From assembly GCA_964418095.1 (NCBI GenBank), contig CAYQKM010000001.1:4173-68172 (forward strand): 64,000 nt of DNA, in the 5' to 3' direction. Source of the DNA: Candidatus Woesearchaeota archaeon. GTDB taxonomy: Archaea > Nanobdellota > Nanobdellia > Pacearchaeales > GW2011-AR1. Below, one piece after another: positions 2,448-20,789 of the stretch; position 1 is the first letter of the stretch; every line of letters starts with the position of its first letter. The notes below the pieces were generated by a model, which saw only the letters and a list, made by a program, of their open reading frames with translations, searched no databases and had not been told where the DNA came from. The translations under genes and the position numbers were made by a program.

Positions 2448-3716
2448 TTAGTAGTAACTTTCTCCAAATTCTTCAGTTTTTTGTGGTTTTTTACCTATTA
2501 GTACAATCAATACTACTAGCAATACTAAAAAGATTATTGCTAACACAACTGTTAATACAACAATTGGGTTAATTGCTTTTCCTTCTGCATCCAATTTAAG
2601 AGTTACTTTTTCTACAAGCTTATCATTAGAAAGTACATTCACATTGAATGAATATTCTCCTTCTGACTTAGCTTTAGCAGTTATTTTAACTGTCTTACTT
2701 GAACCAGCTGGAACAGCAACAACAGCACTATCTACATTTGAAGAAACATCGTCATTTGATTCTACAATTATCTTGTATACAACTAAACTATCAGTTGGGT
2801 TTACAAGTAACATACTGTATTCAGCTTCTCCACCCACTGCAACTGTCTTTTTGTTGCTTGTTACAATAACACTTTCAGGCAAATTGTTTTTTATAGCAAT
2901 TTGTCTTACAAATGTTGATTTAACATCGTCGTTTTCAACAAAAACTTCAAGGTTATAGATACCTTCTTCAACTCCATATGGAATTTCTAGGTATATTCTA
3001 CCACTAGCTGTATCTTCCTCTTTACAGTTTTCAGTGCATGTTTCTTTAGCTACTAAATCACCAAAGTAAGCTGTTCTTTGAAGACCAATTGCTGGTATTC
3101 CAACAGTTACATAAACATCTTCCAAGTCATTATATCCTAAGTTTGTAACCAATATGTCAACAGGTATTGTTTTACCAACATTAACTGATTGAGCAACACT
3201 TATTGATTTAACAACTGGGTTGTATGAAGGTCTTTGAACTCTTACAGCAATATTTCCATATTCTGATTTGTAATCTGAATTCCAGATTCTTACAGAAAGA
3301 GTCATATCATCTGATAAGTCTTTTTTAAGTTCAGATAAAGCTTCAAGTTTCAAAGTTCTTGTATAAGTGTGTCCTGCTTCTACATCAAACGGACTTGTAG
3401 TAGCTTTAACACTATCCTTTTTACCTTCAAGCTCAGCTCTTACTACTATGTTTTTTGCACTTACTTCAGATGTAAAAGTTACTTTAACATTCATAGGCTC
3501 ACCAGCAATAACACTTGGGTTATTATTGATGTTCATACCATCTATTTCAATTGTAACACATCCTGCAACAGGATCACTAGATGGAGTAGATATGAGTGTT
3601 CCGCAACATTCACATTCAGTAGCATTTGTTGCACTAACTGTAGCAACTAAAAACAATGCTATTGCGATTGTACAAAGAGAAACCAAGATTTTCTTTGTAT
3701 TCATTTTTGCTCTCAT
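2448..3716 (-). CDS. secreted cell-surface protein (S-layer/adhesin-like) with N-terminal signal peptide and C-terminal TM anchor
   Basis: N-terminal hydrophobic signal (ILVSLCTIAIALFLVATVSA). Thr/Ser/Val-rich beta-type body. C-terminal hydrophobic helix followed by a basic tail (LIGKKPQKTEE). Strong TATA-like box about 50 nt upstream and a T-rich tract downstream. Confidence 0.6.
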   Translation of the reverse strand: MRAKMNTKKILVSLCTIAIALFLVATVSATNATECECCGTLISTPSSDPVAGCVTIEIDGMNINNNPSVIAGEPMNVKVTFTSEVSAKNIVVRAELEGKKDSVKATTSPFDVEAGHTYTRTLKLEALSELKKDLSDDMTLSVRIWNSDYKSEYGNIAVRVQRPSYNPVVKSISVAQSVNVGKTIPVDILVTNLGYNDLEDVYVTVGIPAIGLQRTAYFGDLVAKETCTENCKEEDTASGRIYLEIPYGVEEGIYNLEVFVENDDVKSTFVRQIAIKNNLPESVIVTSNKKTVAVGGEAEYSMLLVNPTDSLVVYKIIVESNDDVSSNVDSAVVAVPAGSSKTVKITAKAKSEGEYSFNVNVLSNDKLVEKVTLKLDAEGKAINPIVVLTVVLAIIFLVLLVVLIVLIGKKPQKTEEFGESYY

Positions 3717-7370: not shown

Positions 7371-7546
7371 AAGATATATTCTTTAGAGTGCATTTAAATA
7401 CTTTGTTATAAATCTATACTATATTTCACTTTATTATAGATTTCTTATACTATCATAAAGATACTTTATTATAAAATAAAGAAATATCATTTTAAAATTG
7501 ATTATATATAATTATTTAGAATTTATTTTTATACAAAGAAATCACC

Positions 7547-11269: not shown

Positions 11270-11878
11270 TTATCTAGCAGAATCAGCTTGAGCTTCAGAT
11301 TCTTTTCTTTTTCTTATTGCTAAACTCTCACCATTCTTATCTGCAGCCATAATTATTTCTTCTGCAAGTGTCTGAGCAATTGTTTTCTTTTTATTAAATG
11401 CTTTGTCAGATGCCCCATGAACTAAGTGTTTTAATGCTAAGTTAACTCTCCTTACAGGAGAAACATCTACTGCTTGAGGATATCTTGCCCCTCCATATTC
11501 TATAACTGTTGTTTCATCTCTTGGAGCAGAGTTTTCAACTGCTCTAACAAGAACTTCCACAGGATTTTTCCCTGTTTTATTCTCAATATTTTCAAGAACC
11601 TCTAAAATAATTTGCATGTTTTTAGTGTATTTTCCACTAGCACTTCCTTTTTCTAATCTATGCTTTTTACCTCTATGCCCACCAACAGAAAGCTTATTCG
11701 CTAATCTTTCTACAATATTTACTCTTGTTTGATTAAATTTTCCAACATCTCTCCCCTGATTTTTTAATAGTAATTTTGGTTTAAGATTTATAGAAGATTT
11801 TAATCCAGCATCATAGATTTCTATATTTGTAATATCATACTTGTCAAATATTTTAAAGTTTAATGCTTGTTCACTCAT
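11270..11878 (-). CDS. rps7: ribosomal protein S7
   Basis: Conserved position between S12 and EF-2; S7-like length and basic N-terminus. Confidence 0.85.
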   Translation of the reverse strand: MSEQALNFKIFDKYDITNIEIYDAGLKSSINLKPKLLLKNQGRDVGKFNQTRVNIVERLANKLSVGGHRGKKHRLEKGSASGKYTKNMQIILEVLENIENKTGKNPVEVLVRAVENSAPRDETTVIEYGGARYPQAVDVSPVRRVNLALKHLVHGASDKAFNKKKTIAQTLAEEIIMAADKNGESLAIRKRKESEAQADSAR

Positions 11879-12161
11879 TTTTATTTATTATTTTTTCTAA
11901 ATTCTGTTTAATTTTATTAAAGCTTGGGTGATAATTTATTATAGATAAAGTAGCTTCATCTGAATCTCCACAGCATCTTTGCAATACAAATCCGCTTGGT
12001 TTTCTACTGTTTGTGAGATAAAGTTTTCCATCTATTCCAAAAGGGTATCCAGGACGCAACTCTTTATGAGAACTTAAATATCTAATTACATCCTCATAAT
12101 GCGCTCCACTAAATTTTATTTGTTCACTCATTTTATCTTCTACCTTTTTGTATTTTGCCAA
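11871..12161 (-). CDS. hypothetical protein inserted between S12 and S7
   Basis: 96-aa ORF filling a gap of about 290 bp; overlaps S12 by 29 nt and S7 by 8 nt; no motif. Confidence 0.4.
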
Positions 12162-12610: not shown

Positions 12611-12946
12611 TTATTTTGAAAAGATTTTAAACAAGTTATTCTTTTGTCCTCTCTCAAATCCCTCTCTGGCTCTTTGATAGTGTCCTTTCATAATTTTAAA
12701 ATGAAACTCTCTTTCCCCAGGATTCCAAACAGTTGGGATGTAATTTATAACCTTTTCTTCTAAATATAATCTTTGATAATTATTAAGGTCAAATGCTTTG
12801 ATAGATTTATCCAATTTAATAGATTCAAGGTTTTTTACAAGATTCCCATCTACTTCTTCAATAAGATACTTAGCAAATCTCCTTATTCTTCTTTTTGATC
12901 CAGTTATTTTAATTTTTTCTCTTTTTTCATCTATATAGTATTTCAT
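12611..12946 (-). CDS. hypothetical protein between NusA and S12
   Basis: 111-aa basic ORF with no recognisable motif. Confidence 0.4.
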   Translation of the reverse strand: MKYYIDEKREKIKITGSKRRIRRFAKYLIEEVDGNLVKNLESIKLDKSIKAFDLNNYQRLYLEEKVINYIPTVWNPGEREFHFKIMKGHYQRAREGFERGQKNNLFKIFSK

Positions 12947-12951
12947 TTTCT

Positions 12952-13416
12952 TTAAATTATCCTGAAATTTTTTTTAAAAAAATCTTTAGTTATTCTTTGC
13001 ATCTCAATTAATCTTCTTTTTTCTCTGCCAATTAATGCAGCCTTGCTTTGAGTTCCAGCATTAAGAATTATTTCATCTTCTAAAATCTCTAAATCTTTAA
13101 ATGTGACTGGGCTTACAACAAGCTCAATGAATTTTTTAATGTCCTCAGAGTTTCTAGGTATCGCAATAACCTTCACTCTTTTTTTAATTATCTCGTTTAT
13201 TCTTCTCAAATTTTTAGCTTCAGGTCCAATTGCCTTTGAGACAAATTCTTTTGGGACACAAAAAATTATTGTGTTATTATATTCAAAACAGTAATGTGTT
13301 CTTAGGTTTGTAACTTTTTCAAAAAGTTTTAGGTATCTCAAGTCCTTCATATCTAGTGTGTTAACCATTTTTATTAAATAAGAAGTGGTTTTATAAATCT
13401 GTCGATAATAACTCAC
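12952..13416 (-). CDS. nusA: archaeal NusA-like protein (KH domains)
   Basis: KH-like segment with GxxG (LIGREKRRL), about 150 aa, in the conserved NusA-S12 position. Confidence 0.7.
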   Translation of the reverse strand: MSYYRQIYKTTSYLIKMVNTLDMKDLRYLKLFEKVTNLRTHYCFEYNNTIIFCVPKEFVSKAIGPEAKNLRRINEIIKKRVKVIAIPRNSEDIKKFIELVVSPVTFKDLEILEDEIILNAGTQSKAALIGREKRRLIEMQRITKDFFKKNFRII

Positions 13417-13817
13417 TGTTTAATTACTTCATACTCTATATTTTTACTTCCTGAAACATATGGAAATATCTCTTCTGCAAATTTTTTACTAAATGGAATG
13501 TCAAAATATTTTGTAAGAATATATTCTAGTTTTTTAGGAGTGTTGGGAGTTCCAAGTTTTTCAAAAATTTCAGAAACATATAAGCAGGCGTCATTAAAAT
13601 CTTTACTTTGTGTTTGCACTTCTTTCATCCCCATCCAAAGAGTTCTAGCTAATCTATCTTCAAATATTTCTTTAATCTTATAGTCTACACCCTCTTCAAG
13701 AGGATTAAAATCTAATTTGACTGGATTTTTAATATATTCTTCCATGATTGTTAAATACTGTTGATATTTATAAAAATTTATATTTTTTAAAGGATTATTT
13801 ATTAACTTTCTCAACAA
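13413..13817 (-). CDS. hypothetical protein in the position normally held by L30e
   Basis: 134-aa ORF overlapping the rpoA start by 23 nt; does not resemble L30e. Confidence 0.4.
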   Translation of the reverse strand: MLRKLINNPLKNINFYKYQQYLTIMEEYIKNPVKLDFNPLEEGVDYKIKEIFEDRLARTLWMGMKEVQTQSKDFNDACLYVSEIFEKLGTPNTPKKLEYILTKYFDIPFSKKFAEEIFPYVSGSKNIEYEVIKQ

Positions 13818-16800
13818 CCTTTGAATCTGCTGTTTTCTTTTCAGATTCTTTCTTTGTTAACGGCCCAATTACTTTAACAAGTAATCCAGGTAATCCTGTT
13901 CCAACTGGTACAGGCTGATTTAAGATTATGTTTTCTATTACACTTGATAATTTGTCTTTTCCACCTTTCAATGTTGCTTTAACAAACTGTGGAACAGGTG
14001 TTTCAAATGTTGCCCTTGCAAGTATAGAAGATTTCTGAGCAATAATTCCCATTCTTGTAACCCCTTTAATTTCCCCTGAATTAGTCATAGCATCTGAAAC
14101 TAATTTTAAGTGCCTAATATCAATATCTAATCCCTGAGTTTTAAGAACCTCAGTTATTTCATTCATTAACAATTCCCTTGCAACTTCTATTCCGTATATT
14201 TCTGCAACTTCATAGAAATCATTAGAGATAGTTTTTTCTGGGTTAACTTCTTTCATTAAAATAATCTCTTTAAGATTTGTTCCTAGGCTTGTTATAACAA
14301 AGTTATTATCTCTCTTCACTACAAGGATTTGCTGAATTCCTTTAACTCCTGAAATTATTGATTCTTTAAGTTTTTCCTTTAACTTATACAAATCTCTAAA
14401 TCCGGTTTTATCATCGGCACTAAGAGAAATAGAGTCTTGTTTTTCTTTAACCTTAAATCCTTGCTTATTTAATATCTCACTTATCCTTTTAATATTTGTA
14501 TGAGTGTATTTTAATCCTTCTTTATCTATTTTCACCTCTATTTTTTTCTCTACAAAGTCAAGATTTATTTCTGAAGCAATTTCTTTAAGTCTAACTTCTT
14601 TTATTTTTTCAGCAACAAATCTAGCTCCTTCTTCATTATTATATTCTTTATTCAGATAAATTTCCATTTTTGGAGAAGAAGGCTTTTTTCTAGCATCAAA
14701 GATTTCAATTAATCTTGGCAATCCTGTTGTAACCTGCATTTCAGATACACCTGCCATATGGAATGTCCTTAATACCATCTGTGTTGATGCTTCACCAAAG
14801 GATTGCGCAGTTACTATTCCAATAGCTTCACCAGAATCTAATTTTTCTTTAAGATGTAATTTAGTAATATCAATTCCATCGTCTCCATATTTAAATTCTA
14901 TAATATTATTATTGCTGTCTCTTACTGTTTCATCATATTCAACTCTTAAATCTTGAAGAGCGTTAGCCAATCTTCTATATAAGTAACCAGATTTAGGAGT
15001 TCTTAACCCAGTATCCATAAGAGAGTCTCTTCCTGTAATTGCCTGGAAGAAAAATTCATCTGGCCTCAATCCTTTTATGAATGGGTTCTCAATAAATCCT
15101 CTTGCCTTAGGAGATAAATCTCCTTTTTTAAAGAAAGACAATGTTCTATCATTATATCCAAAATCAACTCTTCTATTTCCAAGAGCTTGCTGTCCAACAC
15201 ACGATGCCATCTGAGTAATATTTAAAATATTTCCACCCCCTCCTGACTTAATCATATTACTTACAGGGTTTTCAGAAGGAAATTCTTTTTTTACTATTTC
15301 ACTGATTCTTGTTCTTACTTCATTAAGTGTTTGAAGTATTCTTATTTCTCTTGATTCTTCTTTTGTTTTTCCTGGAATCAGTTCTAAAGTTCCATTACTA
15401 TCTGCTTCAATTATATCTTGTGCTTTCTTCTGGGCTTTCTTTATAACTTCATCACACTGTTTAAGTATACTTTCACTTAAATCTAAATCATTAACAGAGA
15501 TAGTAATTCCTCTTTCACTTAAATAATTCTTTCCAAGGTTAAATGCTTTTTTTATTATCTTAAATGCTTCTTCTCTTCCTATTGACTTATCAAGGACTTT
15601 AACTAATTCTCCATCTTCACTTCCAAATGCTGTTTTATCTATTACACCTTTCACAATCTCTCCATCTTTAATTGTTATTGACTCATTTGAGAAATTAAAT
15701 TTTGGTAAAATCTTTGAAAATACTTCTGCTCCTGAAACAGTTTTTTTAGTTATTTGAGCATCAACTTCTGAATTAAATAATAATTGATTAGCATAGTCAG
15801 ATGAAACTTCATCTAATCCCATTAAATAGTTGCCAGTTATTGCATCCCCTATGCACCCTATTAAACTTGTATTATTTTTAGGAGAAATCAAATTTCTCTT
15901 TACATCGAGTATCATCTTTGCTTCTGCTCTTGCTTCTTCATTTTGTGGAGAGTGTATATTCATTTCATCACCATCAAAATCAGCATTATATGGGGCAGCT
16001 GCAGCAGGATGCAACCTAAATGTTCTCCCTGGCAAAACTCTTACAAAATGAGCCATTAAACTTCCTCTGTGAAGACTTGGATGCCTATTAAATAACACAA
16101 TATCTCCGTCTTGAAGATGTCTTTCAACTTGATACCCAGGAACAAGCTCATTAATTATCTCTTCTTTTAATTCATTTGTTATTTTCTTTCTTTTACCATC
16201 AGTTCTTATAACATAACTTGCACCAGGATATTCTTCTCCTTTTTGTATTAATTTTTTTAATTTTTCAATATTTAAATCATTAACAGTCTCTGCAACAGTT
16301 ACAATTCTTGCAATTTCAAAAGGCACTCCTACTTCATTTATGTCTATATCTGTATCAGGAGAGATGACTGTTCTGCCAGAATAATTAACTCTCTTTCCTG
16401 CAATGTTTTTTCTTATTCTTCCTTCTTTACCTTTAATTCTTTCAGTAATTGTTTTTAAAGGTTGTCCACTCCTATGCCTTGCAGGAGGGATTCTTGTTAC
16501 AGTATTATCAAAAAATGTTGTAATATGAAATTGCAATAAATCCCATAAATCTTCTATAATAACTTCAGGAGCACCCGCATTAAGATTCTCCCATAATCTC
16601 TGGTTTGCTCTTATTATGTCAGAAAGTTTATGTGTTAAATCATCTTCACTTCTTTCACCTGTTTCAAGGATAATTGAAGGTCTTACAGTAACAGGAGGAA
16701 CTAAAAGAGAAGTTAAAATTGCCCACTCAGGTCTGCAAGCAGATGGATTAACTCCAATCTTTTTTAATTCTTCATCAGGTATCTTAGTTAATAATTCTCT

Positions 16801-17286
16801 TATTTCAATAGGGAATATTCTTGTTTTCCCTCTATAAAATGTTGTAGGCTTATCAAGTCTTACTCTCTCTTGAGGAGCTTGACAGTAAGGACATTTTTTA
16901 GCATCTTTAGCTTTTTTAGCTCTTTGACTAGGAGTGTATTTCTCTAAATCTTTTTCACTTATCATTAATTTTCCACACTGATCGCAAAAACATCTTAAGC
17001 CCATTTCAATTAGTGGAACATATTTAAGATGAACAGCAGGTCTTGCTAAATCAATGCTTCCAGAATGCCCTAAACACTCTTTTATTCTTCCACCACAAGT
17101 TCTGCATCTCACTCCTGGATCAACTGTTCCAAGTCTTAAATCCATTAAGCCTCCATCAACAGGATACCCATCAATATCATATAACTCAGGTGTAACTATT
17201 TTTGCACAAGAAAGTTTCTTGATATGTTCAGGACCAAATAAGCTAAACTTCATTTCTCCTATTTTCTTTTTTACTATTTTTGCCAT
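13795..17286 (-). CDS. rpoA: RNA polymerase largest subunit, apparently unsplit (A' and A'' fused), 1163 aa
   Basis: A' features: N-terminal Zn motif (CRTCGGRIKECLGHSG) and active site YNADFDGDEMN. A'' features: trigger-loop region GEASTQMVLRTFHMAGV and C-terminal PVGTGLPGLL. All in one reading frame. Confidence 0.9.
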   Translation of the reverse strand: MAKIVKKKIGEMKFSLFGPEHIKKLSCAKIVTPELYDIDGYPVDGGLMDLRLGTVDPGVRCRTCGGRIKECLGHSGSIDLARPAVHLKYVPLIEMGLRCFCDQCGKLMISEKDLEKYTPSQRAKKAKDAKKCPYCQAPQERVRLDKPTTFYRGKTRIFPIEIRELLTKIPDEELKKIGVNPSACRPEWAILTSLLVPPVTVRPSIILETGERSEDDLTHKLSDIIRANQRLWENLNAGAPEVIIEDLWDLLQFHITTFFDNTVTRIPPARHRSGQPLKTITERIKGKEGRIRKNIAGKRVNYSGRTVISPDTDIDINEVGVPFEIARIVTVAETVNDLNIEKLKKLIQKGEEYPGASYVIRTDGKRKKITNELKEEIINELVPGYQVERHLQDGDIVLFNRHPSLHRGSLMAHFVRVLPGRTFRLHPAAAAPYNADFDGDEMNIHSPQNEEARAEAKMILDVKRNLISPKNNTSLIGCIGDAITGNYLMGLDEVSSDYANQLLFNSEVDAQITKKTVSGAEVFSKILPKFNFSNESITIKDGEIVKGVIDKTAFGSEDGELVKVLDKSIGREEAFKIIKKAFNLGKNYLSERGITISVNDLDLSESILKQCDEVIKKAQKKAQDIIEADSNGTLELIPGKTKEESREIRILQTLNEVRTRISEIVKKEFPSENPVSNMIKSGGGGNILNITQMASCVGQQALGNRRVDFGYNDRTLSFFKKGDLSPKARGFIENPFIKGLRPDEFFFQAITGRDSLMDTGLRTPKSGYLYRRLANALQDLRVEYDETVRDSNNNIIEFKYGDDGIDITKLHLKEKLDSGEAIGIVTAQSFGEASTQMVLRTFHMAGVSEMQVTTGLPRLIEIFDARKKPSSPKMEIYLNKEYNNEEGARFVAEKIKEVRLKEIASEINLDFVEKKIEVKIDKEGLKYTHTNIKRISEILNKQGFKVKEKQDSISLSADDKTGFRDLYKLKEKLKESIISGVKGIQQILVVKRDNNFVITSLGTNLKEIILMKEVNPEKTISNDFYEVAEIYGIEVARELLMNEITEVLKTQGLDIDIRHLKLVSDAMTNSGEIKGVTRMGIIAQKSSILARATFETPVPQFVKATLKGGKDKLSSVIENIILNQPVPVGTGLPGLLVKVIGPLTKKESEKKTADSKVVEKVNK

Positions 17287-17297
17287 CTTATTTGTTT

Positions 17298-20200
17298 TTA
17301 TTCGTATTTATTTTTTAAATCAAATGTGGTGTTTATATGAAGCCCCTCCAATTCTCCTAAAAGAAGTTTAAATGCATATGACACTTCAACTGGTTCAACT
17401 TCTTCACTTCCACACATAGGGCAGTATGTTTTTCCTCTTATGCTATCATCAATTGCAATTGTTCCACATTTAGTACAGATTGGTAAAACTACTTTATCTG
17501 AATCATATCTTTCTTTCAATAACAGTGATGCTCCATGCGCTACCAATGCTTGTTGCTCCATTTCTCCTAATCTCAATGCTCCTCCTCTCGCTCTTCCTTC
17601 AATTGGTTGTCTTGTAAGAAGTGCAACTTTTCCTGAAGCTCTTCCATGAATCTTATTTCCTACCATATATTTTAATTTTAAGTAATATAAATCTCCAACA
17701 AATATTTTTGAGATAATTCTTTTTCCTGTAACTCCATCATACATTGTCTCTTTACCATCAAATCTAAATCCCATGCTTTCAAGCTGCTCTTCTAACTCTT
17801 TTTTACTCATTCCAGAGAAAGAAGTTCCATCAACTATTTCTCCTCTTAAAGAACCTACTTTACCTGCAAGCAACTCTAATAAATATCCAACAGTCATTCT
17901 CGATGGTAATCCATGAGGATTAAAAATCACATCTGGTTTTATTCCTCTAGAAGTAAAGGGTACATCTTCTTCAGGAAGTATCATTCCAACAACTCCTTTC
18001 TGCCCGTGTGCTGTTGCAAATTTATCTCCAAGCTCAGGTATTCTTTGATCTCTTGTTTTAACTTGAACTATTTTATTGCCTTCACAATCTTCTGTAATAA
18101 ACACTGATTCAACAATCCCTTTTTCTTCTTGTCTCATAGAAACACTAGATTCTTTTTTTGTTCTTATTGAGATTTCTCTTGCTTCAGATAAGAACTTTGG
18201 AGGAGACATCTTACCTATCATTACTTCTCCTTCATTAACTTCTGCTTCAGGTGAGATTATTCCATCATCTTCTAAATGATTATAACTTGATTCCATCTTA
18301 TATCCTGAAGAATCTTTTTCAGGCATAGCAATCTCATCTTTTAATCCTCCTGCATAATTCATTTCTATTGCAGAATATGGTCTAAAGTAAAAGCTTCTTC
18401 CAAGCCCTCTATCTAAGCTTCCTTTATTTAAAATTAAAGCGTCTTCCATATTGTATCCTTCATAAGTCATTATAGCAACAACAAGATTTTGTCCTGCTGG
18501 ATAAGTATCTAAAGTATTGTAAACAAAGCTTCTAACTATTGGTCTTTGTGGATATTGCAATATACTTACATCAGTATCTAATCTACACAAATAATTTGCA
18601 GAATATAATCCTAGTGCCTGTTTTTGTGTTTTTGAACCTCTGTTTAATCTTGAACTCTGATTATGATTTCCATACGGAACAAGACTTGTAACTGTTCCAA
18701 ATAGTGAAACAGGGTCAATTTCTAAATGTGTGTGCTCAGAAGTTAATTCTCCTTCACTTAATGAAACAAGAGCATTTTCTTCTTCAGCAGCGTCTATATA
18801 TTCTATTATTCCTTTTTGAAGCAATCCTTTCCAACCCAGTTCTCCTTGTTCTATCTGAATCAAATGTTCAGCTTTAAGTTTAGAGACACCATTCTCAACA
18901 ATAATTAGAGGCCTTAAAACTCTTCCAGATTCAGTTGAAATATAAATTGTTTTTATTCCCTCATCTTCTCTAAAACTCATTTCAAGTGGAAGTTGATTTT
19001 CCCTCCTCTTTTCTCTCATTTGTTGAACAAATTTGTTTCCGTCATCAATCACTCCAATAAACATACCATTAAAGAAAACATCATAATTTCCAACACCTTC
19101 AGGATTAAGTCCTAATGCTTCTAAATCTTTTGCAAATTTGAGCTTATCAAAGTCTACTCTTGTTGAAACTTTTGCAAGTATAGCTAAATTTTTTCTTAAA
19201 CCGATTTCTGTTCCTTCTGGGGTTTCAATAGGGCAAAATCTCCCATAATGGGTTGGATGTAATGTTCTTGCTAAAAAGTTTTCCTGATCTCCAGGGAGCA
19301 TGCTTGAAACTCTTTGCAGCTGAGAGATTGTTGCTAGGTAATTTGTCTTATCAATATTTTGAGTTATTCCTGAACGTTCTCCTGTCCAAGAACCAGTTGC
19401 AATTGCAGACTCAACTCTATGAGAAAATAAAGTAGATTTAGCCAATACTTTTATTGAAAAGTATTTTTTTCTTTTAGCAGATTTTTGCAAAGAGTATTGT
19501 AAATCTCTAACCAATATACCTAAATTAACTCTAAATAATGTAGCAAGTAAATCACCTGAAAGTCTTACTCTTTTATTTGCATAATGATCTTTATCTGTTC
19601 TTAGTTTAGGGTTTTCTTTAGCAATTAAAAATTGTTTAATGAATTTGCAGAGTGTTATTGCTTTCTTCATTCTATCTTCTTTCTTTTGTCCAATGTGCGG
19701 AAATAAATATGAATCTATTCTTTGTTTAACTCTATCTAAAATTTCTTTTTTAGTTCCTTGAAGATTTGTTTTTTCAGCAATAAACATCATAGCATCTTCT
19801 TTCTCAACTATGCTTGAATATTCATATAAATTAACAATTACACTGTCTGTCTCCTTTCCAATGTATTTTGCAATATCAGATTCTTTTGTTAATCCAAGTG
19901 CTTTAAGTAATATAACAGCAGGGATATCTTTAAACCTGCTAAAGGAAACATTAATTATACTTTCTTTATTTTCAGTTATTGTAACCGGTATTTTGTAAGT
20001 TCCTTTTAATGAAAATAATTTAAGTGTTAAATCTCCTTTTTTATTATTCTCGATAAATGGTTGGTTTTCAGCTAAATCCTCAGCCATTATCATTACCCTC
20101 TCATTTCCTTTTATTATAAAATATCCTCCTGGGTCTAAAGGGTCATTATAATTAGTGATTAGTTCTTCTTTAGACATTCCTGAAGTATTGCATTTTTTAC

Positions 20201-20552
20201 TTCTTACCATAATAGGGACTCTTCCTATTTCAACAATTTCAGAATCTATTTGATTATCTTTTTTCACAGTTAATTCAAGGTTTATAGGAGCAGAATAGGT
20301 AAGTTTTCTTAATCTTGCATCAGAAGGAGTTATTAAAGAATGGCTTCCATCAGCCTCGGTAACTATCGGTTTTCCAACATCGATTTTCCCAAGAGTTATT
20401 TCAAATTCTTCATTTACAATAGTTTCTGAAATCTCATCTACTATTTCCTGAAGCTTCTTTTCTATAAAATTATTAAATGAGATTATATTTGATTCAACTA
20501 GAGAGTGTTCCTTTAGATAATTTTTAACTATTATGTGTCCTTTTTTTTCCAT
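17298..20552 (-). CDS. rpoB: RNA polymerase subunit B (unsplit), 1084 aa
   Basis: Rpb2 signature GDKFATAHGQKGVVG, NPHGLPSRMTVG, C-terminal Zn ribbon CTKCG...CPMCG. Confidence 0.95.
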   Translation of the reverse strand: MEKKGHIIVKNYLKEHSLVESNIISFNNFIEKKLQEIVDEISETIVNEEFEITLGKIDVGKPIVTEADGSHSLITPSDARLRKLTYSAPINLELTVKKDNQIDSEIVEIGRVPIMVRSKKCNTSGMSKEELITNYNDPLDPGGYFIIKGNERVMIMAEDLAENQPFIENNKKGDLTLKLFSLKGTYKIPVTITENKESIINVSFSRFKDIPAVILLKALGLTKESDIAKYIGKETDSVIVNLYEYSSIVEKEDAMMFIAEKTNLQGTKKEILDRVKQRIDSYLFPHIGQKKEDRMKKAITLCKFIKQFLIAKENPKLRTDKDHYANKRVRLSGDLLATLFRVNLGILVRDLQYSLQKSAKRKKYFSIKVLAKSTLFSHRVESAIATGSWTGERSGITQNIDKTNYLATISQLQRVSSMLPGDQENFLARTLHPTHYGRFCPIETPEGTEIGLRKNLAILAKVSTRVDFDKLKFAKDLEALGLNPEGVGNYDVFFNGMFIGVIDDGNKFVQQMREKRRENQLPLEMSFREDEGIKTIYISTESGRVLRPLIIVENGVSKLKAEHLIQIEQGELGWKGLLQKGIIEYIDAAEEENALVSLSEGELTSEHTHLEIDPVSLFGTVTSLVPYGNHNQSSRLNRGSKTQKQALGLYSANYLCRLDTDVSILQYPQRPIVRSFVYNTLDTYPAGQNLVVAIMTYEGYNMEDALILNKGSLDRGLGRSFYFRPYSAIEMNYAGGLKDEIAMPEKDSSGYKMESSYNHLEDDGIISPEAEVNEGEVMIGKMSPPKFLSEAREISIRTKKESSVSMRQEEKGIVESVFITEDCEGNKIVQVKTRDQRIPELGDKFATAHGQKGVVGMILPEEDVPFTSRGIKPDVIFNPHGLPSRMTVGYLLELLAGKVGSLRGEIVDGTSFSGMSKKELEEQLESMGFRFDGKETMYDGVTGKRIISKIFVGDLYYLKLKYMVGNKIHGRASGKVALLTRQPIEGRARGGALRLGEMEQQALVAHGASLLLKERYDSDKVVLPICTKCGTIAIDDSIRGKTYCPMCGSEEVEPVEVSYAFKLLLGELEGLHINTTFDLKNKYE

Positions 20553-20561
20553 TTATTTACC

Positions 20562-20789
20562 TTATACTACAACTCTATAGTACAAATTTACTTTTCCTTC
20601 CTCAGCTCTTTCTATTTTTATTACATCACCAACAGCACAATTCAAATTTGCGAGCGCAGCATCGCTGTTAAGGATTTTAGGTAATTGAGATTTAGATATG
20701 TTATATTTCTTTAATAATTCTTGAGTTTCCTTTTCATTGAGTTTTATGTGTTTTGGTTGTAGAATGTGCATCTTGGCTCGGCATGTCAT
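20562..20789 (-). CDS. rpoH: RNA polymerase subunit H (Rpb5 homolog)
   Basis: 75 aa; conserved position upstream of rpoB; Rpb5-like C-terminus GDVIKIER. Confidence 0.8.
   Translation of the reverse strand: MTCRAKMHILQPKHIKLNEKETQELLKKYNISKSQLPKILNSDAALANLNCAVGDVIKIERAEEGKVNLYYRVVV

Follow-up and report, generated by a model that had tools for sequence, protein, structure and literature searches.

The window, a 64,000-nucleotide stretch of archaeal DNA, carries rpoA in the canonical archaeal operon rpoH-rpoB-rpoA-nusA-S12-S7-EF2-EF1a. The features on which the analysis rests are as follows.

20562-20789, minus strand: rpoH (Rpo5), 75 aa, first in the cluster (PF01191 RNA_pol_Rpb5_C, E=1.1e-20)
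17298-20552, minus strand: rpoB (Rpo2), an unsplit 1084-aa ORF, 11 nt from rpoA on its upstream side
19077-19115, minus strand: B''/B' join of rpoB, residues about 480-492 (...GLNPEGVGNYDVFFNG...), end to end with a short linker
13795-17286, minus strand: rpoA (Rpo1), fused A'+A'', a single 1163-aa ORF with an ATG start
14854-17286, minus strand: A'-homologous part of rpoA, residues 1-811 (clamp with Zn sites, active site, funnel, bridge helix)
15958-15987, minus strand: metal-A catalytic motif NADFDGDEMN, residues 434-443 (sequence and alignment)
14947-15054, minus strand: bridge helix, about residues 745-780, with P764 (RTPKSGY) (alignment to yeast Rpb1)
14833-14871, minus strand: fusion junction, a 13-residue spacer at 806-818 (ITKLH/LKEKLDS, the slash marking the join) (MAFFT junction alignments)
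13798-14853, minus strand: A''-homologous part of rpoA, residues 812-1163 (trigger loop, jaw, cleft and clamp C-terminal elements)
14698-14811, minus strand: trigger loop region, about residues 826-863 (AQSFGEASTQMVLRTFHMAGV...) (alignment to Rpb1 1053-1156)
12952-13416, minus strand: nusA-like gene downstream of rpoA (TIGR01952 nusA_arch, E=1.9e-16)

The minus-strand location of the rpoA ORF was unmentioned in an earlier note on this DNA. For the gene-context comparison, an 88%-identical relative (L081) was used, and the nusA-like protein was 90% identical to its orthologue there. The small ORFs flanking nusA gave nothing useful in searches of Pfam (E<=1) and NCBIfam (default threshold).

The earlier note had described rpoA as one unsplit 1163-aa ORF, and this was borne out by the ORF list, the translation, which holds no internal stop, and Pfam. 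The five Rpb1 domains (PF04997, PF00623, PF04983, PF05000, and PF04998) were found in canonical order in one frame, each above the cut-off, with E-values of 6e-77 to 4e-21. The A' model PRK08566 (NCBIfam) matched residues 4-822 with its positions 4-874 of 883 (1040 bits; cut-off 819), and the A' chains (Rpo1N) in the PDB aligned to residues 5-811, ending at about 805-811. The A'' homology that had been claimed for the C-terminal part was likewise recovered, since TIGR02389 (NCBIfam) matched residues 807-1132 with its positions 32-361 of 367 (E=1.7e-111) and the Rpo1C/A'' chains in the PDB aligned from about residues 806-814 onward (E=1e-71 to 7e-76). The scores for the two equivalog models were just under their cut-offs (1016.8 vs 1042.55 for the A' model TIGR02390, and 372.8 vs 420.65 for TIGR02389), as the fused RpoA lacks the ends of these models on either side of the junction.

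All the motifs quoted in the earlier note were located. The N-terminal Zn motif of the clamp, C61/C64/C71/H74 (CRTCGGRIKECLGH), is present and conserved, as are the further clamp Zn ligands C101/C104/C132/C135. Within the NADFDGDEMN motif, D438, G439, E441, and N443 were invariant in a 56-sequence alignment, and N434, D436, and D440 were conserved in at least 90%. In the A'' part, GEASTQMVLRTFHMAGV lies at residues 831-847 and PVGTGLPGLL at 1127-1136. The bridge-helix proline P764 was invariant in 41 close homologues and is common to the Woese-type sequences; this nanoarchaeal-type proline is the counterpart of P810 of neA' (PMC8204694). The ORF is very likely the functional rpoA of a Pacearchaeota-type DPANN archaeon, encoding the catalytic largest RNAP subunit in a derived one-piece state, and the catalytic mechanism is presumably as in the split archaeal enzymes. 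The window holds no second copy of rpoA or of A'', and a paralogue explanation was therefore dropped.

The fold of the isolated chain was predicted with AF2. A shallow alignment of close homologues (75-91% identity) yielded an unusable model (pLDDT 50.5, pTM 0.29), whereas a diverse alignment gave a pLDDT of 85.1 and a pTM of 0.77. The latter model superposed on single-chain Rpb1/Rpc1 with query TM-scores of 0.83-0.86. The pLDDT was about 90 over residues 791-830, which span the join, and about 50 at the flexible tip of the trigger loop (residues 843-848). The model thus shows a confident predicted fold across the A'/A'' join.

The split point had been expected at about residue 800, and alignment with A'/A'' pairs and with Rpb1 placed the join at residue 811/812. 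Directly after residue 811, 62 alignment columns are empty in the window RpoA and filled in the split relatives. About 61 residues, consisting of the A' C-terminal tail and the A'' N-terminal helices, are missing exactly at the join, together with the stop codon and the gene boundary. The spacing between the anchors GID and (S/P)GEA was 13-15 aa in all 40 fused sequences, compared to 64-87 aa in the split ones. In the alignment to yeast Rpb1, query residue 817 falls on Rpb1 884 and query residue 811 on Rpb1 1053, and the helices that were lost are what archaea retain of the 'foot' of eukaryotic Rpb1. They are probably dispensable. Two lesser deletions, of 18 and about 19-24 residues, lie elsewhere in RpoA, and in the alignments it is the junction deletion that makes up most of the shortness of the protein. 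The earlier note took the length of the ORF, below the usual A' plus A'' total, as fitting a reduced genome; diffuse reduction is not supported, since about 61 of the missing residues form one block at the join.

The same single ORF and the same junction were observed in more than 120 protein clusters. The 120 closest (75-100% identity), collected from NCBI, JGI, ENA, and Logan, were almost all 1159-1165 aa long, with P0054 at 1132 aa. The Pace-type GTDB species representatives (57-76% identity) also had one ORF across the junction, and together with the window they formed a fused set of 40 sequences (39 species-representative genomes plus the window). His811 was nearly invariant across this set, which, together with the constant length of the join, fits a single origin of the fusion. 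Only two Pace-type rpoA genes were broken (L003 and L037), both away from the junction. The apparent single 2088-aa ORF of rpoB plus rpoA in L020 was rejected as an artefact, since its two parts meet in 100 consecutive N, which mark either a scaffold gap or masking.

The nearest relatives outside the fused clade are split. All 30 Woese-type loci carried separate A' and A'' genes, divided at query residues 809/815 and 47-56% identical to the query. A neighbor-joining (NJ) distance tree of RpoA was computed without the junction columns. It recovered the fused clade, the split clade, and the two together as monophyletic groups, each with 100/100 bootstraps; this is a gene tree rather than a species tree, and the polarity read from it also relies on the names of NCBI records, which are often unreliable. 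The unsplit state is phylogenetically informative, as had been proposed. Da Cunha et al. (2017, PMC5484517) already speak of 'a secondary fusion in Pacearchaeota'. By these comparisons, the one-piece rpoA is a derived, secondary fusion and not a retained ancestral state. With a split sister clade, the 100/100 monophyly, and about 61 residues gone exactly at the join, fusion by in-frame deletion is the best reading.

Under fusion by in-frame deletion, the ancestor of Pacearchaeota and Woesearchaeota would have carried A' and A'' as adjacent genes. A single in-frame deletion would have taken out the stop of A' and the gene boundary, along with ~16 codons at the end of A' and ~45 at the start of A'', leaving the end of the post-bridge-helix segment joined to the start of the trigger-loop helix via the 13-residue spacer. 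The fused gene would then have been fixed and become a signature of the whole Pace-type clade. The consequences may include obligatory 1:1 synthesis of the two halves, their assembly in cis, and the loss of a surface element.

Alternatively, the fusion may have arisen in two steps, the stop between A' and A'' being lost first, to leave a read-through fusion with the foot remnant kept, and the ~61 residues being deleted later. In the DPANN loci L039, L044, L045, and L068, A' and A'' are in frame and one stop apart, so that stop loss would be an easy route. Moreover, the rpoB fusion in the same clade is such an end-to-end join, and the length of the region varies in other DPANN (L068 and L044, both split, have spacers of 34 and 50 aa, respectively). 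However, no intermediate, fused and with the ~61 residues kept, was found among the 40 fused Pace-type sequences, all of which have 13-15 aa, and one deletion covers both fusion and shortening. We therefore consider the two-step route rather unlikely and infer one deletion event.

It is far less probable that the unsplit rpoA is ancestral and predates the archaeal A'/A'' split, as has been proposed for Thaumarchaeota, Korarchaeota, Aigarchaeota, and Bathyarchaeota. TACK lineages do have unsplit RpoA (PMC3082918; PMC3852633; L062, P0123/P0130), DPANN are deep-branching according to some authors, and the earlier note had likened the ORF to the rpoA of those few deep-branching lineages in which it is reported as unsplit. 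Nevertheless, that likeness broke down on comparison, for the TACK-type proteins are only about 40% identical to the window RpoA and keep about 86 residues where the latter has 13, and L062 was an outgroup, not a sister, in the RpoA tree; the protein is accordingly not of the TACK type. Instead, the window RpoA groups with the split Woese-type A'/A'' genes (51-56% identity), with which it has the bridge-helix proline in common. Nanoarchaeum equitans is split as well, with A', A'', B', and B'' all separate genes (PMC8204694). Furthermore, split archaea possess the missing residues, which align with the flanks of the Rpb1 foot, and their absence is therefore the derived state.

Two further explanations have next to no probability. 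A missed stop or frameshift that wrongly merged two genes might be feared in a metagenome-assembled contig, the more so with the breaks in rpoA of the related MAGs L003 and L037 and the scaffold gap in L020; however, no stop or frameshift, a possibility raised earlier, occurs at the junction, the junction length and continuous ORF are identical in the more than 120 independent clusters from several projects and assemblers, the other 39 clade sequences are also continuous, the L003 and L037 breaks lie at other positions, and the junction is modelled confidently by AF2. Horizontal acquisition from a lineage with an unsplit subunit (a TACK archaeon, a eukaryote, or a giant virus) could call on the single-chain eukaryotic and viral Rpb1 homologues, many with E<1e-170 to the query, but their representatives are only 34-40% identical, the best non-Pace relatives are the split Woese-type genes, the synteny of rpoH, rpoB, nusA, and S12 is conserved with relatives, the Nanobdellota-specific bridge-helix proline is present, and the G+C content is uniform at about 30%.

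The rpoB gene has also been re-fused, end to end, later than rpoA within the clade. Its join site is a stop and restart in the Woese-type and basal Pace-type relatives, and the basal lineages L024, L029, and L033 have a fused A and a split B. The split of rpoB in Nanoarchaeota has been regarded as ancestral (PMC3655853). With rpoA and rpoB each fused, the catalytic core is encoded by two genes instead of four. We lean, with modest confidence, toward the view that this DPANN order re-assembled a split core stepwise, A' with A'' under excision of the foot remnant and later B'' with B', and that foot-less A fusions arose independently elsewhere.

The fusion itself is already known for Pacearchaeota (PMC5484517, PMC8204694), where it is treated only in passing; the ~61-residue junction deletion and the later rpoB fusion are not described in the parts of these papers that were consulted. 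No description of the stepwise A-then-B pattern or of the junction deletion was found in the literature searched, and fused rpoA is unmentioned in a survey of archaeal fusions and fissions (PMC11237513), in a paper on Undinarchaeota, and in a preprint on complete Nanobdellota genomes. The S. shibatae RNAP paper leaves the foot remnant undiscussed and so supplied no contact map of the deleted helices. The new detail is that rpoB was re-fused later in the clade and that other DPANN have independent foot-less fusions; the finding of a fused rpoA leaves current understanding unchanged.

RNAP core genes rarely fuse or split, and such events have been used in arguments on the archaeal root and deep branching. 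As a late secondary fusion with a deletion scar, the unsplit rpoA should not be read as an ancestral or 'eukaryote-like' trait. The fused rpoA is a clean molecular signature of the Pacearchaeota-type clade, and the rpoB fusion marks a subclade. At 1163 aa, this Rpo1 is naturally minimised: the foot remnant is gone, as are a Cys-rich loop and a portion of the clamp head. With its unusual nanoarchaeal bridge-helix proline, it could guide the design of a single-chain archaeal RNAP. If the stepwise reading is true, selection for fewer and shorter RNAP core genes would act recurrently on streamlined symbiotic archaea, and the helices of the A' tail and the A'' head would form a surface module that can be dispensed with, making this protein a natural minimal Rpo1.

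Compared with the split Rpo1N/Rpo1C of Woesearchaeota, N. equitans, Euryarchaeota, and Crenarchaeota (for example, PDB 4qiw, 2waq, 8cro), the window RpoA has the same domains, motifs, and operon position. However, the split forms are two genes and two polypeptides (the Woese-type pairs being 47-56% identical to the window), and they keep about 23-25 A' C-terminal and about 50-52 A'' N-terminal residues that are absent in the window RpoA. The unsplit Rpo1 of Thaumarchaeota, Aigarchaeota, Korarchaeota, and Bathyarchaeota is, like that of the window, one continuous chain whose gene follows an unsplit rpoB, but it is about 1270-1280 aa long (1281 aa in the bathyarchaeotal L062 and 1268 aa in the korarchaeotal P0130) and retains the inter-anchor segment (86 aa in L062). 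It is considered ancestral or separately derived, and a different event from the fusion in the window. Eukaryotic Rpb1/Rpc1 resemble the window RpoA in the single chain, the overall fold, and the NADFDGDEMN motif, whereas the foot of about 170 residues (Rpb1 884-1053), the larger clamp head and jaw, and the CTD are all absent here.

Foot-less fused RpoA was also found in other DPANN, namely L047 (LFW-156_1), L048 ('Altiarchaeota'), L059 ('Aenigmatarchaeota'), P0122, P0124 ('Nanohaloarchaeota'), and P0204. Like the window RpoA, each is encoded by one ORF (1125-1171 aa), with 8-21 residues between the anchors. Nevertheless, the junction sequences and boundaries differ and each groups with split relatives elsewhere, suggesting independent, convergent fusions. 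The closest counterpart is the known fused subunit A of Pacearchaeota, for which a previous report lists two continuous A'+A'' polypeptides (MAG61561.1 and NCO11196.1; Weinzierl and colleagues 2021, PMC8204694). It belongs to the same clade, the 75-100% identical homologues being named Pacearchaeota or Nanoarchaeota, and the exact window protein is already in NCBI (P0001). Both are continuous polypeptides of ~1160 aa with the nanoarchaeal-type bridge-helix proline, and the window protein has the 13-15-residue spacer and the place in a clade sister to the split Woese-type genes that mark the Pacearchaeota type. There is no essential difference between them, and the window RpoA is one more member of this group.

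The rpoA gene lies on the minus strand together with rpoH, rpoB, a nusA-like gene and the genes for S12, S7, EF-2 and EF-1alpha (Pfam), a layout that is the canonical archaeal arrangement, in a window with a uniform G+C content of about 30%. The features considered here were as follows.

20562-20789, minus: rpoH (PF01191)
17298-20552, minus: rpoB, unsplit, 1084 aa (Pfam, NCBIfam)
about 19077-19115, minus: B''/B' join of rpoB, end-to-end with a short linker (GLN-PEGVGN-YDVFFNG)
13795-17286, minus: rpoA, 1163 aa, ATG start (ORF listing)
RpoA residues 61-74 (translation): Zn motif CRTCGGRIKECLGH
RpoA residues 434-443 (translation): NADFDGDEMN
RpoA residues 831-847 (translation): GEASTQMVLRTFHMAGV
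RpoA residues 1127-1136 (translation): PVGTGLPGLL
14995-14997, minus: P764, mid-helix proline of the bridge helix (RTPKSGY)
13413-13745, minus: 110-aa ORF (MEEYIKNP...) between rpoA and nusA
12952-13416, minus: nusA-like gene (NCBIfam)
12611-12946, minus: 111-aa basic ORF between nusA and S12
11871-12161, minus: 96-aa ORF, TTG start, between S12 and S7

The rpoA translation was uninterrupted and contained all the motifs of the earlier note. Rpb1 domains 1-5 were present in order (Pfam). Of the 883 positions of the A' model PRK08566, 4-874 matched RpoA residues 4-822, and of the 367 positions of the A'' model TIGR02389, 32-361 matched residues 807-1132 (E=1.7e-111; both NCBIfam). In the PDB, archaeal Rpo1N chains aligned up to residue 805-811 and archaeal Rpo1C chains from residue 806-814 to about 1138. 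By the A'' model and the Rpo1C matches, the last 350 residues are thus homologous to A'', and no stop or frameshift was found at the A'/A'' join. Thus, the observation of the earlier note, a single unsplit ORF with A' and A'' signatures, is confirmed, and neither a broken join nor an unrelated C terminus, the two defects it had named, was found; its interpretation was partly right. By homology, RpoA would form the clamp, active centre (metal A), bridge helix, trigger loop and jaw of RNAP. The best 120 matches to RpoA in a 5.8-billion-protein collection were 75-100% identical and nearly all 1159-1165 aa long (1132 aa for the protein P0054), and the named ones were labelled Pacearchaeota, Nanoarchaeota, Diapherotrites or plain archaeon. 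The source organism is a Pacearchaeota-type member of Nanoarchaeota/Nanobdellota (DPANN).

Eighty related loci were collected by a GTDB species-representative scan, and their stop-to-stop ORFs were extracted and matched to RpoA. The group next in similarity to RpoA (Woese-type; 47-56% identity, for the most part named Woesearchaeota) had A' and A'' as two genes in 30 of 30 loci, including the complete genome AR15 (L074). A' of the split relatives ended about 16-18 residues past RpoA residue 809, and A'' started about 45-50 residues before residue 815. In the junction alignment, 62 columns filled in the split relatives were empty in RpoA right after residue 811; in these columns, the related locus L049 reads KGTIVVSKIIKDVLGE-stop-MNPIVKEYEGKIPRKLLEDADREFSNSKLTQAQMKKVMEELEVRY. 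The A' C-terminal 25 and A'' N-terminal 52 residues of Sulfolobus, and the corresponding 23 and 50 residues of Thermococcus, have no counterpart in RpoA. In the alignment with yeast Rpb1, RpoA residue 817 corresponded to Rpb1 884 and residue 811 to Rpb1 1053. The Rpb1 segment between 884 and 1053 is the 'foot' domain (cf. Cramer et al. 2001). A single in-frame deletion across the A' tail, the A' stop codon and the A'' head would be the simplest account of the fusion. A two-step origin, in which the A' stop was lost first and the junction segment was deleted later, seems rather unlikely, as no fused sequence retaining the junction segment was seen in this clade.

Beside the junction deletion, RpoA lacked 18 clamp-head residues of the split relatives after residue 118 (window about 16930, minus strand) and, behind residue 533 (window about 15685, minus strand), a Cys-rich loop (CxxC...C...C/H) of about 19-24 residues. 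The loop was still present in the basal loci L015, L029, L032 and L033 of the fused, Pacearchaeota-type (Pace-type) clade, as well as in Bathyarchaeota and others, and is a probable Zn-binding element lost in this subclade. The junction block accounts for most of the shortness of RpoA, and the clamp-head and Cys-rich-loop deletions add to it. The earlier note had considered RpoA to be shorter than A' plus A'' in keeping with a reduced genome; the shortness was found, but it reflects mainly one junction deletion rather than diffuse genome reduction.

The AF2 model of the isolated RpoA chain reached a pLDDT of 50.5 with close homologues only, and a pLDDT of 85.1 and a pTM of 0.77 with 56 diverse sequences. 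In the latter model, confidence was about 90 over residues 791-830, and residues 843-848, the tip of the trigger loop, were the only ones with low confidence. A short helix (807-812) ran into the trigger-loop helix (822-840), and the whole model superposed on single-chain Rpb1 and Rpc1 with query TM-scores of 0.83-0.86 (Foldseek). The confidently modelled join and this superposition make the A'/A'' join appear structurally plausible. The fusion should enforce equimolar synthesis of the A' and A'' parts and make the trigger-loop/jaw module assemble in cis, and it would remove a small helical surface element from RpoA.

The unsplit gene had been likened to that of deep-branching lineages. An NJ gene tree of 77 RpoA sequences, with a Bathyarchaeota sequence as the root, gave 100 of 100 bootstraps to each of three groups, namely the fused clade, the split clade and the two together, and did so also without the junction columns. 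The TACK-type unsplit proteins were longer than the 1163-aa RpoA (1281 aa for Bathyarchaeota L062, 1268 aa for Korarchaeota P0130) and only about 40% identical to it. Furthermore, their G-I-D (805) and (S/P)-G-E-A (819) anchors were separated by about 86 residues, compared to 13-15 residues in 40 of 40 sequences of the fused clade. The split sister group, the well-supported clades and the dissimilar TACK-type proteins speak strongly against a retained ancestral rpoA and for a secondary, derived fusion grouping with the split Woese-type genes. The likeness to deep-branching lineages was not upheld; the gene is genuinely unsplit and, as had been proposed, phylogenetically informative.

Every locus of at least 57% identity had a single ORF spanning the A'/A'' boundary, and His at RpoA position 811 was nearly invariant in the fused clade. 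Just two rpoA genes of the fused group were broken, both away from the junction: L003 by an in-frame stop at 7450-7452 (RpoA residue 492), and L037 by a frameshift at about 3560-3569 (residues about 221-230). Both are otherwise intact fused genes, and the interruptions are probably assembly errors. Since one ORF with the same junction occurred in 40 sequences and the breaks lay elsewhere, a sequencing or assembly artefact is excluded as the source of the unsplit rpoA.

B'' and B' were separate in all Woese-type loci, split at RpoB residues ~483-491. The rpoB gene was still split in the early-branching fused-A members L024, L029 and L033, and was a single ORF of 1084-1126 aa in the other fused-A members, the window included, with B'' and B' connected end to end by a short linker at the site where the relatives are split. 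For Nanoarchaeota, the split rpoB is considered the ancestral state (PMC3655853). The fused A with split B in these three members points to rpoB as a second, later re-fusion within the fused-A clade, the A fusion having come first.

Compact single-ORF RpoA proteins (1125-1246 aa, 8-21 residues at the junction) were also found in other DPANN-labelled lineages (L047, L048, L059, P0122, P0124, P0204 and P0251), named 'Altiarchaeota', 'Aenigmatarchaeota' or 'Nanohaloarchaeota', others being unnamed. The junction sequences of these proteins differed, and in the gene tree the first six fell within or next to split groups, which suggests that these foot-less fusions arose independently. Both anchors were present in 130 of the 150 best 50%-identity representatives, with a spacer below 45 residues in only 6 of the 130. 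Other arrangements were seen among the related loci. In two Woese-type MAGs (L078 229-6324, L080 1-4005), A'' lay upstream of A' in the inverted order rpoB'-A''-A'-...-S12-S7. In L060 (8558-11164) and L061 (2895-5444), the A'' ORFs were 850-869 aa long; an insert of about 470 residues breaks up their homologous part and is a candidate intein by its size (cf. the 860-aa A'' model PRK14898). The MAG CAYOOQ01 carried two rpoB''/B'/A'/A'' clusters on different contigs (L075 and L079), sister sequences in the gene tree, which may represent either a paralogous RNAP core or a mixed bin; RpoA paralogues are mentioned in a Nanobdellota preprint.

The 110-aa ORF had no Pfam or NCBIfam match and no tblastn match in the 80 related loci. 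Since the rpoA end abuts nusA in the 88%-identical relative L081, this region is an insertion of about 365 nt, specific to the present genome, in a strongly conserved operon. The 111-aa ORF had no family match; its L081 counterpart (102 aa, same position) was only 32% identical, with flanking genes 90-96% identical; this small protein is fast-evolving. No L30e gene was noted in the nusA-S12 part of the cluster. The 96-aa ORF overlapped the S12 end and the S7 start, had no Pfam match and was 63% identical to L081 10750-11028.

The literature searched, the coverage of which was incomplete, gave no description of the scar left by the deletion, of the re-fusion of rpoB or of the convergent fusions. 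The identical RpoA protein is already in NCBI (P0001, on a 145-kb contig), and the unsplit rpoA is already known for this clade. In agreement with a secondary origin, Da Cunha et al. (2017) mentioned 'a secondary fusion in Pacearchaeota' (PMC5484517), and unsplit RpoA of Thaumarchaeota, Korarchaeota and Aigarchaeota has been tabulated (PMC3082918). In N. equitans, A', A'', B' and B'' are all separate, and the paper on the N. equitans RNAP also reported A' and A'' as one polypeptide in two pacearchaeal sequences (PMC8204694). RpoA P764, invariant among close homologues and common to Woese-type A', is the counterpart of N. equitans neA' P810, the same unusual substitution, which has been studied biochemically and cuts activity when put into the M. 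jannaschii RNAP (PMC8204694).
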